From a virus (Duplodnaviria; Heunggongvirae; Uroviricota; Caudoviricetes), in IMG/VR virus record IMGVR_UViG_3300015214_000028, positions 1-64,000 of that record: DNA of 64,000 bases, one strand, 5' to 3'. The position numbers and the translations under genes are program-made. The notes beneath the pieces were generated by a model. It ran no database searches. It was not told where the DNA came from and saw nothing but the letters and a program-made list of their open reading frames with translations. Positions 1,522-40,721 of this stretch are shown one piece after another. Position 1 is the first letter of the stretch; each line of letters starts with the position of its first letter.

Positions 1522-1888
1522 GAGTAACCTCCGGACGTAGTTTAATCTTACCCTCTAGTAATCTTACAACATACTCAGGATTATTCGTGTGAAACAATTC
1601 TAAATCGTACACGCCACCTTCTTGTACTAGTACACTAGACGTAGAAGGTAAAACAGTAACCTTAATTTCTCCGGGTAGTCCGCCTAGCTCTATCCCCCCA
1701 CCCGGATCTGAATTCAAATTTAAAAAAGCTACAGGAGAATCGAACTCTTCCCTAGCCTGCATTCGGGCGGAGAACTCTGTTAAGTCTACTGGAGTAGTTA
1801 CACCAGTATTAGTATCTTTTGTTTCCCAAATAAAAGACTTAACATAAGTTGCCCCCTTATTTATCTCTAAATCTAGTCTTCCTGCCAT
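1514..1888 (-). CDS. hypothetical structural protein (124 aa); position suggests a head decoration or connector role
   Basis: Track ORF. Sits between the capsid gene and the fibre gene and overlaps the fibre start by 8 nt (GTGGCTAG). Confidence 0.5.
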
Positions 1889-9283: not shown

Positions 9284-10849
9284 ATGATCGAAGCTAAAAT
9301 TGCACTGCGCATTCGCGGCGCTTTCCGGTTGCGCAAACCCGAAAGCATTGATTCTGCTATTGCCGACGTTGCCGAGGAAATTGGCGCGGATGTTAACGCG
9401 GTTCGGGAAGTTTACAATACCGAACGTGCACGGTTGGACGCGGCACGGATCGAGCGGATTCGGAAGGCGGAAAGCAAACCCGTTTCGGGCGGCGCGTTGC
9501 GCCCGGATTATTCTGCGGAAGATTACCCTGGTCCAATCATCGTCACCGCCGCGCAAAATAACACGGAAGTGGCAGAAGCTTTCTGGGATAACCTTGTCGG
9601 GTATGCGTCCAGCATTGGGGCTAAAATCATTGTCGCACCGATTCTGTATAATAAATCGGCATGGAATCAGCCCGATGACATGACTGGACAAGATATTTAC
9701 TTTGACCCCAAGGTCAAACCCTATATGCGCGATGATCGGTTTACCGTTCACGGTGTAGCGGTATTGGCTAACGCTCATGTTTTGCCGACGTCCAAGAATC
9801 CGTTGTCGGGTTTTGAATCGGCCACGGGTGCTGGACAGTCTATCGTCATCCCGGCCAGTAAAATCTCTCTTAAAACGATGCCACGCCTTAAGGGTGAACC
9901 GCTGAAAATTGTTCAATCTACGGGCACGGTTACGGTATGCAACTATGTCCAGCGCAAGGCCGGAACGGTATCCGAGTTGGAGCACAATTACGGGTTTACC
10001 GTGATTGAATCCGGCGGAAAAGTTCGATCGGTAGAATGTATGAATCCTGATGCCGGCGGGTTTTTTGATTTTGACGGGGAGCATGTAAACGAACAAGGCA
10101 TTGAGTACCCTGATAACCCGGCTGCGCTGGTTTTTGGAGATATTCACGCCGAAAAGCTGCCGCTGGAACGGCTTAATGCAATCTCGGCACTAGCGCGAAA
10201 GGTCAATCCGTGCAATGTCATTTTCCACGATATTCTAGACTTTTCGAGTCGGAACCATCACAATCGGGAGTCTAGTCTCTTCCGCTTTGTGGCGGATTCT
10301 ACGGGCCAGTCAGTGGAAAGCGATATTGAAAAGGTCGCTAACGTGCTAGACTGTTTCCCAAGCTATGCTCCTATTGTGGTTGACTCCAACCATGACAGAG
10401 CGCTTGAACGTTGGCTGGATGAGGCAGATTATCGCGAGGACTCACAAAACGCGATTTTCTTTTTGGAATTGCAGCTTGCACGATACCGTGCGGCAAACTG
10501 TGGACAAGAGCCTATTAACCTGCTAAAATACGCTTTGACCAAGCGTTTCGGCAGGGATTTTAATGCTACTTTCCTGAAGCCTGATGAAAGCTGCAAGGTA
10601 GAAGGTATTGAATGCGGCAATCATGGCGACCGTGGCCCTAACGGCGCTAGGGGAAGTTTGCAAGCATTCCGGGCAATTGGCGAATCTATGGTGATCGGAC
10701 ACTCCCATAGTCCGGGCATTGCCGGCAAAGTGTATCAGGTCGGGGTTTCGGGCAGCCTTGAAATGGGGTACAATGTTGGACCGTCGTCTTGGGCGCATGC
10801 TCACTGTATCATTTTCGCCAATGGACAACGGCAAATGATTTTCGAGTAA
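9284..10849 (+). CDS. large protein with a C-terminal calcineurin-like (Mre11-type) metallophosphoesterase domain; resembles T5 pre-early A1
   Basis: Motifs VFGDIHAE, HDILD, DSNHD, ECGNHGDRG, VIGHSHSP; 521 aa. Confidence 0.55.
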   Translation: MIEAKIALRIRGAFRLRKPESIDSAIADVAEEIGADVNAVREVYNTERARLDAARIERIRKAESKPVSGGALRPDYSAEDYPGPIIVTAAQNNTEVAEAFWDNLVGYASSIGAKIIVAPILYNKSAWNQPDDMTGQDIYFDPKVKPYMRDDRFTVHGVAVLANAHVLPTSKNPLSGFESATGAGQSIVIPASKISLKTMPRLKGEPLKIVQSTGTVTVCNYVQRKAGTVSELEHNYGFTVIESGGKVRSVECMNPDAGGFFDFDGEHVNEQGIEYPDNPAALVFGDIHAEKLPLERLNAISALARKVNPCNVIFHDILDFSSRNHHNRESSLFRFVADSTGQSVESDIEKVANVLDCFPSYAPIVVDSNHDRALERWLDEADYREDSQNAIFFLELQLARYRAANCGQEPINLLKYALTKRFGRDFNATFLKPDESCKVEGIECGNHGDRGPNGARGSLQAFRAIGESMVIGHSHSPGIAGKVYQVGVSGSLEMGYNVGPSSWAHAHCIIFANGQRQMIFE

Positions 10850-24671: not shown

Positions 24672-25183
24672 AAACATTCCTTGTAGCAGACACGCACTTT
24701 GGTCACCAAGGTGTTTGTAGGTTTCTTAGAGAGGACGGCTCCAAGCTTCGTCCATGGGATAACTATGCAGATATGGATCGGGAGCTTGTTGCTAGATGGA
24801 ACGCTAAAGTAGGGCCTAAAGATAAGGTATATCACCTGGGCGATGTTCTTATAAACCGTAGGGCTTTTGGTGTTTTGAATGAGCTTAATGGTGATAAGGT
24901 ACTAATACGTGGTAACCATGACATCTTTAAAGACGCCGAGTATACTCCATTCTTTAGGTCTATACGTGGGTCTCATGTGTTAAATAACATGTTGTTAACT
25001 CATATACCTGTTCACCCAGACAGTATGGGCAGGTTTACAGTTAATCTTCATGGGCACTTGCACTATCGTAGTGTTATGCTAGGAGACACGCCCGACCCTA
25101 GGTACCTATGTCTATCAGTGGAGCATACTGATTATGCTCCAATAGATTTTAACGAAGTACTTTCTAGAGTAGCTCAGCGGTAG
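24668..25183 (+). CDS. calcineurin-like metallophosphoesterase
   Basis: Motifs ADTHFGHQG, GDVLINR, IRGNHD, GHLHYR. The 3' end overlaps tRNA-Asn. Confidence 0.6.
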   Translation: MKTFLVADTHFGHQGVCRFLREDGSKLRPWDNYADMDRELVARWNAKVGPKDKVYHLGDVLINRRAFGVLNELNGDKVLIRGNHDIFKDAEYTPFFRSIRGSHVLNNMLLTHIPVHPDSMGRFTVNLHGHLHYRSVMLGDTPDPRYLCLSVEHTDYAPIDFNEVLSRVAQR

Positions 25184-25237
25184 AGCAGTTGGCTGTTACC
25201 CAATTGGTCCTAGGTTCGATACCTAGCTCTAGAGCCA
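25163..25237 (+). tRNA. tRNA-Asn(GTT)
   Basis: Acceptor TCTAGAG/CTCTAGA; D arm AGCTCAGCGGTAGAGCA; anticodon loop CTGTTAC; T loop TTCGATA; encoded CCA. Confidence 0.75.
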
Positions 25238-25312
25238 GGGGGATTAGTGATAATGGGAGCACAGGGGTTTTGCATACCTTTAGTGGGAGTTCAATTCTCC
25301 CATCCTCCACCA
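25238..25312 (+). tRNA. tRNA-Ala(TGC)
   Basis: G3:U70 alanine identity pair; anticodon loop TTTGCAT; T arm GGGAG-TTCAATT-CTCCC; encoded CCA. Confidence 0.65.
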
Positions 25313-25320
25313 AGTTTTAA

Positions 25321-25395
25321 GCACGATTCGTCTATCGGTTAGGACTCAAGGTTTTCATCCTTGCAAGAGGGGTTCGACTCCCCTATCGTGTGCCA
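25321..25395 (+). tRNA. tRNA-Glu(TTC)
   Basis: Anticodon stem CAAGG/CCTTG with loop TTTTCAT; T arm AGGGG-TTCGACT-CCCCT; encoded CCA. Confidence 0.7.
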
Positions 25396-25459
25396 ATTTT
25401 AGTTTTAGGATAGATACAGCAAATTTTACTTATATGGAAGTAACCAAAACTATCCTGTC

Positions 25460-25488
25460 TTGATTTTGTTTGATTAGTGCTGTATAAT
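25460..25488 (+). promoter_or_regulatory. sigma70 promoter TTGATT-N17-TATAAT ahead of the tRNA-Gly/Ile pair
   Basis: Read directly. Confidence 0.6.
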
Positions 25489-25500
25489 GTTTATATCGGA

Positions 25501-25569
25501 TGGGGAATCGCCAAGATGGTTAAGGCATTGGGTTTTGATCCCGACAGTCGAATCCTTCTTCCCTTGCCA
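25501..25569 (+). ncRNA. tRNA-like leader or degenerate tRNA (acceptor, D arm and a TTG anticodon arm recognisable, no T arm)
   Basis: GCC-aagatggttaa-GGC D arm and TTGGG-ttttgat-CCCGA anticodon-like arm ending in TTGCCA, but the 3' part has no foldable T stem. Confidence 0.3.
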
Positions 25570-25578
25570 AAATATTTT

Positions 25579-25654
25579 GCGGATATAGCTCAATTGGTAG
25601 AGCTTCTGCCTTCCAAGCAGACTGTTGTCGGTTCGAGTCCGACTATCCGCTCCA
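25579..25654 (+). tRNA. tRNA-Gly(TCC)
   Basis: GCGGATA/TATCCGC acceptor; loop CTTCCAA; T arm GTCGG-TTCGAGT-CCGAC; encoded CCA. Confidence 0.8.
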
Positions 25655-25661
25655 ACTTTAC

Positions 25662-25736
25662 TCCCGATTAGCTCAGAGGTAGAGCAGTGTTTTGATAAAG
25701 CACTGGTCGATGGTTCGAGTCCATCATCGGGTACCA
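25662..25736 (+). tRNA. tRNA-Ile(GAT)
   Basis: D arm GCTCAGAGGTAGAGC; loop TTGATAA; T arm GATGG-TTCGAGT-CCATC; encoded CCA. The 1:72 pair is T:T. Confidence 0.7.
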
Positions 25737-26075
25737 AATTTAGAGTATACTACCCCAACGGATGGAAAGGAACTACACCTCCCCTTCTTAGTAGGGAAAA
25801 CTCTAAATCTTCTGGGGTCTTGGCCAGACTTTAGAATAATCGACTGTGCGATGAGAGGCTTTAATCTCTCGGGGTACGGCAGTACAGGAACCGTAACCTG
25901 CTATAATAATGATTCCTTTCACTTTTAGGAGCTTATTACTAAGTCTCCTTTTTCAAGATAACTAGACGGACTGTGCTGCCCATAGCGGCACGTGTTAACA
26001 AGTTCGGTGGCGTCTGGCAACCTGCAAAAACTGTATATGCCAGTATACAGGAATGTATCTAGTTGTCTTGAAAAA

Positions 26076-26167
26076 GGAGAGATCCCATAATCGGTATTGG
26101 AGCGGATTGCTAATCCGTCGGCCTGCTAAAAACAGACTTGTGGGTTCGAGTCCCACTCTCTCCACCA
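26076..26167 (+). tRNA. tRNA-Ser(GCT), type II with a long variable arm
   Basis: GGAGAGA/TCTCTCC acceptor; loop TTGCTAA; T arm GTGGG-TTCGAGT-CCCAC; encoded CCA. Confidence 0.7.
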
Positions 26168-26172
26168 TAATT

Positions 26173-33747: not shown

Positions 33748-33833
33748 AGATATTAAAAAGTGCGCAGAGTATCAGCACGTAGTCAAAACTACTCTAAATT
33801 TCATTTTGCAACTTGGAAAACCGGAGTACCTGA

Positions 33834-34034
33834 ATGATATTAAACATCAAACGAGTAAAATACGATGCAGCTAATGAAGAGCATCGAAATGCTTATTTTA
33901 ATTTTCTAAATACTGGAAGATGGTGTAAACATTTCGAAGTGGAGTACCCTTATGTGGAACTTCCAGCTCAGCTAGCGCAGCAAACACTGCGTTTTTATCG
34001 TGATCGGGAGACTCGTCTAGTATCCACTGCTTAG
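33834..34034 (+). CDS. hypothetical protein (66 aa)
   Basis: Track ORF. Confidence 0.4.
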   Translation: MILNIKRVKYDAANEEHRNAYFNFLNTGRWCKHFEVEYPYVELPAQLAQQTLRFYRDRETRLVSTA

Positions 34035-34407
34035 CCCTGCTGCCCTGCTTTGTTTAGCTCAAGCTATTTACTACGAAGCCCGGGGTGAGCCAGAAAGGGG
34101 ACAACACGCGGTTGCGCATGTTGTATTAAATAGAGCCGCAGATCCTAGGTATCCCGATCATATCTGCAAAGTTGTACACCAGCCCTATCAGTTCTCTTGG
34201 ACTTTAGAAAAATCGCGAAAAGCCCCCAAAGGGCCTGCGTGGAAAAAAGCACAAGACATTGCGATTCTTTCATATGTAGGGCTAATAAAAGACCCTACTA
34301 ATGGGGCCTTATTTTTTCATAATAAACAAATAAAGCCTTACTGGGCTAAGAAAGTTACTTACAATATTAAAATTGGAAATCATGTATTCTACTCAACAAT
34401 CAAATAA
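34021..34407 (+). CDS. SleB/CwlJ-family cell-wall hydrolase domain ORF with no canonical start codon (possible frameshift fusion with 33834..34034, non-canonical start, or pseudogene)
   Basis: Frame +1 open from 34021 to TAA at 34405-34407. Translation ...CLAQAIYYEARGEPERGQHAVAHVVLNRAADPRYPDHICKVVHQPYQFSWT...ALFFHNKQIKPYWAKKVTYNIKIGNHVFY. Missing from the ORF track because there is no in-frame ATG/GTG/TTG. Confidence 0.5.
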   Translation, partial: YPLLSPAALLCLAQAIYYEARGEPERGQHAVAHVVLNRAADPRYPDHICKVVHQPYQFSWTLEKSRKAPKGPAWKKAQDIAILSYVGLIKDPTNGALFFHNKQIKPYWAKKVTYNIKIGNHVFYSTIK

Positions 34408-34741: not shown

Positions 34742-34748
34742 CCCTACA

Positions 34749-34772
34749 AGGCCCCTTAATGGGGCCTTTTTC
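34749..34772 (+). terminator. rho-independent terminator
   Basis: AGGCCCC-ttaat-GGGGCCT followed by TTTTT. Confidence 0.7.
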
Positions 34773-34922: not shown

Positions 34923-35177
34923 ATGTTTGAGCTTTTCCTAGCGTTTCTAGCATGTGCCGTGGCCACAGCTTTTATAGCTATTTTTTGGCTATATATTCCA
35001 ATTATTGAAAAAGTAAGAGTTCTAAATAGAAAAGATTCGATTTTTATAGGCACCCCCTTACTAGCTTGCGTTGTATTCTTTGTTCTAACTTTAGTTATGG
35101 CACCAATGATGTTTGGTGTAATGCTTAACGAACCTCATAGAAAGATTTTCATTCAAGAATTGAGTACTAAACATTGA
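34923..35177 (+). CDS. membrane protein (84 aa, two TM helices)
   Basis: Track ORF. Confidence 0.45.
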   Translation: MFELFLAFLACAVATAFIAIFWLYIPIIEKVRVLNRKDSIFIGTPLLACVVFFVLTLVMAPMMFGVMLNEPHRKIFIQELSTKH

Positions 35178-38732: not shown

Positions 38733-39021
38733 GTGGTTCATTAGCGAAAATGAACGCGGAGAGCGGCTTTACCTAACTATTGACTCTTTTCGAGACGTAG
38801 AGTACGTACATTTTCGCAAATACTTTCAAGATTTTGAGGGTGAGTACAAACCCACGAAAGAGGGGATTTCATTCCCTCTTTCTATAGTAGCAACTCTACG
38901 TCTCTTTCTAGCACTGTCAGAAATTGTATCTGAAGCTGAAAAAGAGTTGCTATCCGACTCTCTAAAAGAAATTTTAAATGACGCTAAAACATATCGAAGG
39001 TCTACTGAAGTCAGCGAGTGA
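38725..39021 (+). CDS. hypothetical protein (98 aa)
   Basis: Track ORF. Confidence 0.4.
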   Translation: MYEWFISENERGERLYLTIDSFRDVEYVHFRKYFQDFEGEYKPTKEGISFPLSIVATLRLFLALSEIVSEAEKELLSDSLKEILNDAKTYRRSTEVSE

Positions 39022-39943
39022 GGCTTATTACGCTGGAGATCCGTTTCTAACGGATGAACAATTCGACGCTCTAGCAGCTTCAGTAAACTTTAGTGATGTT
39101 GGTAGTTCCGTTAAAGGTCTTAAGGCTAAACATACATATCGTATGTACAGTCTTAAAAAATACTATCCCGGGGAAGGTAAGCCTCCCCTTACTGAGTACA
39201 CTAAAGCTAAGATTACAACTCCTAAGCTTGATGGTGCCGCAATTTCCCTTCTATATAAAGAAGGAAAATTTGTACAAGCTCTCACGAGGGGCGACGGCTT
39301 TGAGGGGCAAGTTATTACTGCCAAACTTGCCTGCTCAACTCTCATTCCTCTGGAAATCTCTTATAAAAAAGAAATTCAGATTACGGGAGAAATTGTAGCC
39401 CCTAAAGATATTGCTAATGCTAGAAATTACGCTGCAGGTGCACTAGGGCTCAACAGTATTGAAGAATTTCTATGCCGAGACCTATATTTTGTAGCCTATG
39501 GTGCTAACATGGTGGATAAGCCAAATTTCTACAGAGATACATTGGCTTGGCTAGAAAGTCTTGGGTTTAAAACAGTTGCTGATTCTGATTTGTGCGACAA
39601 ATTTCCACAAGACGGAGTTGTTACTCGGATTGATTCCGAAAAGGATTTCAATGAATATGGGTTTACTAGTAAGCACCCTAGTGGAGCTTTTGCTACAAAG
39701 TCTAGAAATGCTGAGGTTCGTAGCATTTTACGAGAAGTTAAATGGCAAACAGGACGTAGTGGTAAAGTAACTCCAGTAGCCTTGTTTGATCCAGTTATTA
39801 TTGATGGTGCAACTATTTCACGAGCTACACTTAATAACCCGGGGTTTATCGAGGCTTTAAATCTAGATCTAGGGGATTTTGTGTATATCGAGCGAGCAGG
39901 CGATATTATTCCCGCTGTTGTTCGTAGTGAAAAACCAACTTGA
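38978..39943 (+). CDS. NAD-dependent DNA ligase, N-terminal subunit (Ia + adenylation + OB domains)
   Basis: YYAGDPFLTDEQFDAL (domain Ia), TPKLDGAAISL (KxDG adenylation lysine), OB-fold region. Ends with a stop; a promoter follows. Confidence 0.7.
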   Translation: MTLKHIEGLLKSASEAYYAGDPFLTDEQFDALAASVNFSDVGSSVKGLKAKHTYRMYSLKKYYPGEGKPPLTEYTKAKITTPKLDGAAISLLYKEGKFVQALTRGDGFEGQVITAKLACSTLIPLEISYKKEIQITGEIVAPKDIANARNYAAGALGLNSIEEFLCRDLYFVAYGANMVDKPNFYRDTLAWLESLGFKTVADSDLCDKFPQDGVVTRIDSEKDFNEYGFTSKHPSGAFATKSRNAEVRSILREVKWQTGRSGKVTPVALFDPVIIDGATISRATLNNPGFIEALNLDLGDFVYIERAGDIIPAVVRSEKPT

Positions 39944-39977: not shown

Positions 39978-40721
39978 ATGATCGAAATTCCATCAAATTG
40001 TCCGAGCTGCGACGGCCCACTAACAAAAGTAAACATGCAGTTATTTTGCAAAAACAAAGGGTGCCCAGCTCAAACACTGAAAAAAATTCAGCATTTCGCC
40101 AAAGTGATGGGAATTAAAGGTCTAGGAGAAAAAACTCTAGAAAAGCTCGATTTTGAGACTTATCACGATCTTTACTACTTTAGCCCTCAATATTTTACAG
40201 ATACTCTAGGGACAAAAGTAGGTACAAAGATTCTTGCAGAAATTGAAGCGTCTAAGTCTGTTCCTCTAAATCAGGGTATCGCAGCTTTCGGTATTCCTCT
40301 TATTGGTGAAACTGCTGGAAGGAAACTAGCCGAAGTATGTGCTTCTATTGAAGATATTGACTTTGAGACGTGCAAAAAAGCAGGATTAGGAGAAAAAGCT
40401 TCAAATAATCTGTTATGGTGGCTTGAGGAACAAGAATACAACGGCCTACCAATTAACTTTCTTTTTGAGAAACCTACAAAGCCCAGCTCTAATGGCTATG
40501 TAGTTTGTATCACTGGAAAACTAAATGATTATAAAAACAGAAGTGAAGCTAAAGCTTTTCTAGAAACTTTAGGCTGTACAGTAGTAGATAGTATTACCTC
40601 TAACACTAATGTTCTAATCGTAGAAGATGGGAAAACAAGCTCATCTAAATATAAACAAGCGTTAAGTCGCAATATTAAAATCTGCTCTATTAAAGAGCTT
40701 GAATCTGAAATTATTTCATAA
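39978..40721 (+). CDS. NAD-dependent DNA ligase, C-terminal subunit (Cys4 zinc finger + HhH + BRCT)
   Basis: CPSCDGPL...CKNKGC zinc finger, GIKGLGEKT HhH motifs, BRCT-like C-terminus. Confidence 0.7.
   Translation: MIEIPSNCPSCDGPLTKVNMQLFCKNKGCPAQTLKKIQHFAKVMGIKGLGEKTLEKLDFETYHDLYYFSPQYFTDTLGTKVGTKILAEIEASKSVPLNQGIAAFGIPLIGETAGRKLAEVCASIEDIDFETCKKAGLGEKASNNLLWWLEEQEYNGLPINFLFEKPTKPSSNGYVVCITGKLNDYKNRSEAKAFLETLGCTVVDSITSNTNVLIVEDGKTSSSKYKQALSRNIKICSIKELESEIIS

Follow-up and report, generated by a model that had tools for sequence, protein, structure and literature searches.

We describe here a 126-aa single-domain cell-wall hydrolase gene of the SleB/CwlJ type on a phage chromosome, which is probably functional and translated from a CTG codon at position 34027, with initiation coupled to the upstream gene orf66 and expression at a low level. 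The window referred to throughout is the whole stretch of DNA that was analysed, 64,000 nt (64 kb) in length, and the features discussed below are listed in Table 1. Starts of this sort are rare but known, coupling of this sort is known too, and the gene is a fresh example and no novel mechanism. Since both were established before, no concept is changed by it.

Table 1. Features of the window discussed in the text, with positions counted from its first nucleotide.
Feature	Position	Strand	Remark
A1-type DNA transfer protein (T5 hallmark)	9284-10849		
15 tRNA genes, no suppressor	25163-33256		
HNH endonuclease ORF within the tRNA region (T5 hallmark)	29797-30273		
orf66, 66-aa gene, presumed coupling partner	33834..34034	+	ends TAG; called in all contigs
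GGGAG, sole Shine-Dalgarno-like element upstream of the hydrolase	34006..34010	+	16 nt from the CTG, normally too far
SleB/CwlJ-type (Hydrolase_2) cell-wall hydrolase	34027..34407	+	126 codons + TAA, proposed CTG start
CTG, proposed initiation codon	34027..34029	+	GTG in E/E2; CTG in A, B, C, D
-8 stop/start overlap junction CTGCTTAG	34027..34034	+	hydrolase start overlaps the orf66 TAG stop
GAA, Glu17 of YYEARGE, presumed catalytic glutamate	34075..34077	+	invariant column, alignment to the SleB Glu
orf119, downstream gene, 119 aa	34382..34741	+	ATG 34382, overlaps the hydrolase 3' end by 26 nt
Intrinsic-terminator-like hairpin	34748..34768	+	8 bp, 6 G-C, then T run; 7 nt after the orf119 stop
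NAD-dependent DNA ligase split into two ORFs (T5 hallmark)	38978-39943 and 39978-40721		

The hydrolase frame is closed on its 5' side by a TAG (34018-34020), is open from 34021 and ends at a TAA (34405-34407). None of its 128 codons is an in-frame ATG, GTG or TTG, while the near-cognate codons within it are CTG 34027, CTG 34045, ATT 34066 and several ATH codons further in. The initial annotation had reported such a frame at 34021-34407, startless but with a hydrolase domain, and had noted that the ORF track missed it. Our recount and the full-length Pfam match agree with the former, and the gene is indeed absent from the program-made ORF list. The match to Hydrolase_2 (PF07486) covers profile positions 1-100 of 100 and residues 22-124 of the protein, with 96.2 bits (E = 2e-27) against a cut-off (gathering score) of 27 bits for this family, and PHROG 938, annotated as 'endolysin', is matched with E = 5.5e-26.

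The structural evidence points in the same direction. The AlphaFold model of the 126-aa protein has a pLDDT of 94 and a pTM of 0.87, and Foldseek superimposes it on the SleB catalytic domains 4FET and 4F55 with TM scores of 0.80-0.85 and rmsd values of 2.1-2.4 A over 123-124 columns (123 of the 126 residues); the next-best match has an E-value above 1. Of the two glutamates in YYEARGE, Glu17 is the one that we take to be catalytic. It is carried by helix 1 of the model (residues 4-18), its column is invariant in an alignment of 50 homologues, and it aligns to the Glu of YGESRGE in 4F55 and 4FET. The catalytic glutamate of SleB has been reported to be essential (PMC12331253). Sequence, fold and conserved Glu all place the protein firmly in the Hydrolase_2/SleB-CwlJ catalytic-domain family, and its predicted activity is probably that of a lytic transglycosylase. 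Only eight residues precede the conserved Cys-Leu-Ala, the protein has one domain, and neither a signal peptide nor the N-terminal peptidoglycan-binding domain expected of SleB proper was found in the 126 residues. According to the model, a start at 34027 would give exactly one complete domain.

The sequence of this region is reproducible across assemblies. Four other assemblies, namely SRR6484323 and SRR8449813 (both from Logan), ERZ27247376 (ENA) and JGI 3300028603, match the 908 nt that comprise orf66, the hydrolase gene and orf119 with 100% identity; some of the records may share reads, but at least two distinct sequencing runs are represented. It had been proposed that an indel error at 34015-34035, placing an ATG in frame, would remove the puzzle, and this identity contradicts such an error. 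Divergent sister haplotypes were found via the orf66 protein cluster. At the position equivalent to 34027, a CTG is present in group B (L020), group C (L018, L019, L022 and L023) and group D (L024), all from other sequencing runs, and a GTG is present in groups E (L008-L010) and E2 (L025). Exact-pattern scans of viral and metagenome contigs yielded no further haplotype and no outgroup, searches with orf66 and orf119 returned matches from the present phage clade only, and the next hydrolase homologues are at most 53% identical.

Comparison of these haplotypes points to CTG 34027 as the most likely initiation codon. In E and E2, the gene callers report a 126-aa Hydrolase_2 protein (P0001 and P0125) beginning at the GTG in question, with the same 8-nt overlap with orf66 as in the window. 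The other two bases of the codon, T 34028 and G 34029, are invariant across haplotypes, and all four bases are seen among them at 34025, the synonymous third base of an orf66 Ser codon. The signal-less homologues P0004, P0007, P0034 and P0043 have the same relative start, 8-10 residues before Cys-Leu-Ala. In addition, every variable site among six haplotypes was scored both in the orf66 frame and in the hydrolase frame. Eight sites vary over 33917-34025. None of them alters the orf66 protein, whereas in the hydrolase frame every one is non-synonymous, and one introduces a stop codon in haplotype D. Another eight sites vary over 34035-34062, and six of these are silent when read in the hydrolase frame; for example, all four bases occur at 34041 and Ala is kept throughout. 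This shows that the coding frame switches from orf66 to the hydrolase within 34026-34035. The pattern over 33917-34025 rules out an upstream extension by TAG read-through, and between the preceding in-frame TAG and 34035 no near-cognate start other than CTG 34027 is available. As for canonical in-frame starts, group A has none, and those of groups B and C are found only at codons 86 and 88, downstream of Glu17.

The hydrolase start is embedded in the end of orf66, a gene with its own GGAG 8 nt upstream of its ATG and with no homologue outside the present phage clade in protein and PHROG searches. That orf66 ends at 34034 and overlaps the following frame by 14 nt, as noticed initially, is right for the open frame; counted from CTG 34027, the overlap is 8 nt. 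Such overlaps are not peculiar to this place: elsewhere in the window, the -8 spacing recurs at five junctions (ATGTTTGA, ATGTATGA, TTGGTTGA and two minus-strand cases), and there are twelve -4 junctions (mostly ATGA) and two -1 junctions. Examples of stop/start overlaps in the window are located at 34923, 38725, 53480, 58830 (-) and 15901 (-). Three overlap motifs are enriched in prokaryotes, the NTGNNTGA-type -8 spacing among them, and overlapping pairs are translationally coupled through re-initiation or RNA unfolding (PMC12548453).

Genes after intergenic spacers in the present phage have GGA(G/A) 5-9 nt upstream of their starts, and the genes at overlapping junctions in the window often miss a Shine-Dalgarno-like motif. 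For CTG 34027, no ribosome-binding site was found at functional spacing, the GGGAG being 16 nt away against the usual 5-9 nt, and the GGGAG itself reads GGGAA in the sister lineages. It is for this reason that coupling is invoked. In E. coli, CUG initiates at about 1-2% of the level of AUG, a figure that may not hold for the present host (bioRxiv 10.1101/063800). With a weak CTG and the GGGAG at such a distance, de novo initiation would be very inefficient and a coupling step would be needed. Consequently, a CTG in a -8 overlap without a well-placed Shine-Dalgarno sequence makes weak initiation coupled to orf66 translation, and hence low expression, most likely. Translation would then start at CTG 34027, with the initiator tRNA reading CTG as a near-cognate start codon. 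Ribosomes that end orf66 at its TAG would re-initiate 5 nt upstream at the CTG, or would unmask it, and the yield would be a small, fixed fraction of orf66 output, that is, a low-level, cytoplasmic, signal-less hydrolase. In the minimum free energy (MFE) fold of 33955-34045, nucleotides 33971-33980 pair with 34027-34035 and bury both the CTG and the TAG. Such pairing would fit the unfolding component of coupling, and we give it no weight, as its stability is about that of shuffled sequence (z 0.43).

Could the hydrolase instead be made without any start of its own? If ribosomes near the orf66 stop underwent a programmed +1 frameshift or made a short hop, the product would be an orf66-hydrolase fusion of about 190 aa, and a +1 frameshift fusion was among the options offered by the initial annotation. 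Relative to orf66, the hydrolase is indeed in the +1 frame, and the switch at 34026-34035 is placed just before the orf66 TAG, which is the geometry of a 'shifty stop'. Unconventional recoding inside 34026-34035 would leave a polymorphism pattern identical to the one observed, and a 10-nt hop is formally conceivable, given the take-off codon GCU (34029-34031) and the in-frame Ala GCN codon at 34039-34041 in all haplotypes; the phage also encodes a tRNA-Ala(UGC). However, no slippery or re-pairing site was seen at the junction, where, at GCU UAG, the P-site GCU must re-pair on CUU, which is not cognate. There is neither a homopolymer run nor a Shine-Dalgarno stimulator at the right distance (the GGGAG lies 18 nt upstream), and the predicted folding of the junction region is no more stable than that of shuffled controls (z +1.59 and +0.43), with no Rfam family matching it. 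Within the putative hop gap, two of the three variable sites (34035 and 34038) are synonymous in the hydrolase frame. Moreover, the short homologues are independent proteins with the same relative start, and orf66 homologues, whether fused or free, were not found elsewhere. A +1 frameshift is also unnecessary because lineage E carries a canonical GTG at the same place, from which the hydrolase is called as a separate gene. With no shifty site, no stimulator and no need for a shift, we consider the fusion improbable. The same holds for the junction as a true recoding site, at which a clade-conserved +1 or bypass signal would produce an orf66-SleB fusion without a canonical slippery sequence. 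It shares its slim chance jointly with the idea that the CTG is kept by selection as an expression dial, the CTG and GTG variants being low- and high-expression phages.

In pairwise Nei-Gojobori estimates for the hydrolase between haplotype groups, the CTG lineages A and B differ with a dN/dS of 0.078 (dS 0.29), A and C with a dN/dS of 0.114 (dS 0.47), and B and C with a dN/dS of 0.090 (dS 0.39). The synonymous excess among the CTG lineages is highly significant (Fisher p below 1e-9), and dN/dS lies at 0.08-0.15 in every between-group comparison. The flanking genes are less constrained, with dN/dS values of 0.50 for orf66 and 0.72 for orf119 (against lineage E). Neither stops nor indels occur in the 126 hydrolase codons of the CTG lineages. 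The hydrolase gene is thus intact, and it is conserved under strong purifying selection in several CTG-bearing lineages. The deepest splits also lie among these lineages, and E forms one terminal branch that is nearest to B (dS 0.14). From this depth and from the terminal position of E, it follows most parsimoniously, by unrooted reasoning without an outgroup, that CTG is the older state and GTG a derived improvement.

These values bear directly on the suggestion, also made at the outset, that the frame is a recent pseudogene, i.e., a recently silenced copy that has lost its start codon and is intact in looks only. The frame has no canonical start and is left uncalled by gene callers in more than ten contigs, and the adjoining DenV-like gene has been deleted in the window lineage, a sign that the region is partly dispensable and decaying. 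However, the CTG is common to four haplotype groups separated by dS values of 0.29-0.47, and dN/dS among the CTG lineages, at 0.08-0.11, is below that of the flanking genes and contradicts recent silencing. Silencing would need to have been independent and very recent in each lineage. We judge this explanation to be very unlikely.

Just as doubtful is initiation at another non-canonical codon further downstream, CTG 34045 or ATT 34066. Both are in-frame near-cognate codons, and ATT 34066 is conserved in all haplotypes. However, 34045 is CTT in every other lineage, and neither codon is accompanied by a Shine-Dalgarno sequence or by an adjacent stop for coupling. The codons at 34033-34062 vary mostly synonymously, which indicates that they are translated, and they form helix 1 of the confident model. 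A rare start codon had been one of the initial proposals, with CTG 34027 or an ATT as examples. The former has been strengthened, as the codon is GTG in the sister lineage and CTG in four groups under purifying selection, while the latter is unlikely, since the codons upstream of it vary synonymously and build helix 1. Finally, a sequencing or assembly error, or a recoded TAG that extends the frame up to an ATG, can practically be dismissed. The two nearest upstream in-frame stops (33973 and 34018) are indeed both TAG, with an ATG a few codons ahead of the former, but several assemblies carry the identical sequence, translation of the long ORFs under code 11 is normal, and no suppressor is found in the set of 15 tRNAs. 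Moreover, the sites that vary upstream leave the orf66 protein unchanged but are non-synonymous when read in the hydrolase frame, to which haplotype D adds a further stop.

Two further ideas were considered and rejected. The first is a phage-encoded initiator tRNA. The tRNA-Met(CAT) at 31417-31491 has no three consecutive G:C pairs in its anticodon stem, and by this feature it is classed as an elongator Met or Ile2-type tRNA. The second is that CTG starts are a general habit of the phage. The 64-kb window was scanned from stop to stop for frames of at least 70 codons with a positive coding score and no canonical start. The only other such frame, 1593-1847 (+), lies opposite a minus-strand ORF at 1514-1888 (tail-fibre-assembly-like) and is probably its shadow.

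The hydrolase gene is followed by orf119, which is called in all related contigs and for which no family match was found in Pfam and PHROG searches. The genes orf66, hydrolase and orf119 are likely to form one transcription unit, closed by the terminator-like hairpin after orf119. We also found a terminator-like hairpin inside orf66 (window 33974-33993, AGCGCAG-CAAACA-CTGCGTT then TTTTTAT), 34 nt upstream of the CTG. Its 3'-arm variants, 33987 C/T and 33992 T/C, keep the pairing (G-C/G-U) and are both synonymous in orf66. It may be a chance structure, or it may attenuate transcription of the hydrolase gene. The neighbours of the hydrolase are orf66, orf119, ThyX, PhoH and tRNAs, none of which is recognised as a holin or spanin, and no second endolysin, holin or spanin was found among about 50 window ORFs scanned with PHROGs and Pfam, in a genome that extends beyond the window. 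The hydrolase may be either the lysis endolysin of the phage or an accessory enzyme.

As judged from its genes, the window belongs to an uncharacterised T5-like phage, of which only metagenomic sequence exists. Besides the hallmarks listed in Table 1, it carries genes for a D5-like regulator, a small terminase, ThyX and PhoH. No close phage relative was found in GenBank, where DNA similarity consists of short matches to tRNA and thyX only. Some other features of this region were observed. For example, a 156-aa Pyr_excise (T4 endonuclease V/DenV-like) gene is located between the PTH2-like gene and orf66 in B, C and E, and has been lost in the window by a clean deletion of about 326 nt, with the junction near 33793/33794 and a remnant that begins ATGAATAG; the deletion was mapped by comparing window 33744-33833 with L018 2555-3025. 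The listed 147-aa ORF at 33182-33625 overlaps a tRNA-Asp (33177-33256), and the identical contigs call it from ATG 33272 as a protein of 117 aa; it has a weak match to PTH2 peptidyl-tRNA hydrolase and a strong match to phrog_5822. In addition, a 456-aa DUF2828/DUF7788 (vWA-like) protein, encoded at 31510-32880 between tRNA-Met and tRNA-Arg, is kept in all related contigs.

The hydrolase start is an annotation catch and, at the same time, a test case for non-canonical initiation in phages. It provides a phage CTG-start example backed by comparative genomics, being conserved across diverged lineages, placed in a -8 overlap and devoid of a usable Shine-Dalgarno sequence. Standard gene callers missed the hydrolase of the window in every assembly that carries the CTG version; in all four identical contigs, for instance, the 347-nt gap that holds it is left without any called gene. 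A collection of about 15 billion proteins does not include its product, though its DNA occurs there several times. The gene thus illustrates a systematic blind spot in the annotation of phages and metagenomes. If the proposed account is true, production of the SleB-like hydrolase in this phage clade is low and coupled, and a sister lineage has increased it by means of a GTG.

Compared with known proteins, the window hydrolase shares with SleB of B. cereus (4F55) and B. anthracis (4FET) the full-length domain, the fold and the invariant Glu of Y-x-E-[AS]-R-G-E. However, it is a phage-borne single-domain protein of 126 aa outside a spore-germination setting, and its substrate and activity are predicted only. 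It resembles the single-domain CwlJ or the short phage forms, unlike SleB proper, which is a spore cortex-lytic enzyme. SleB-like genes are frequently found in Demerecviridae, and also in many phages of other groups (PHROG 938). In tblastn searches, the SleB-like 'cell wall hydrolase/endolysin' proteins of Demerecviridae (T5_ev219 YP_013605805; Sugarlandvirus, e.g., Klebsiella phage DevonBitter) are about 43-48% identical to the window hydrolase over about 92-94% of the protein, and both are encoded in the early, tRNA-rich nucleotide-metabolism region of a T5-like genome. The T5/Sugarlandvirus homologues have an ATG start and an N-terminal signal peptide (MKAALLLVAALTFSFSSQA...), whereas the window protein has neither. 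These signal peptides are of the classical kind in both T5_ev219 and Klebsiella phage DevonBitter (MKAALLLVAALTFSFSSQA..., MKAAILMISILTSFHAQA...; L027 1426-1875, L026 3908-4369). Their presence there, and their absence in the window protein and several short metagenomic homologues, imply different routes to the wall.

As for the mode of initiation, coupled overlapping pairs (-4, -1 and -8) are well documented, including the coat-lysis coupling of RNA phages (PMC12548453; PMC6728339). The window junction shares the NTGNNTAG -8 geometry with them, apparently within one transcription unit, and a lysis-type enzyme downstream of another ORF would likewise get a small fraction of the ribosomes. The documented pairs use ATG, GTG or TTG, whereas in the window the coupling would act onto a CTG. 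CTG starts have been verified for E. coli hda and yfjD (EcoGene 3.0; PMC3531124), and the RepFIB rep gene also starts at a CTG, to which a deliberately low expression level is ascribed and which pipelines commonly annotate wrongly (PMC11983097). The RepFIB rep CTG has a good ribosome-binding site, whereas that of the window has none at normal spacing and is situated in a -8 overlap with the upstream stop; the starts of hda, yfjD and RepFIB rep were verified experimentally, and that of the window is proposed here from sequence comparison. What all these genes have in common with the window hydrolase is a CTG at the initiation position, which annotation pipelines miss or mis-annotate.
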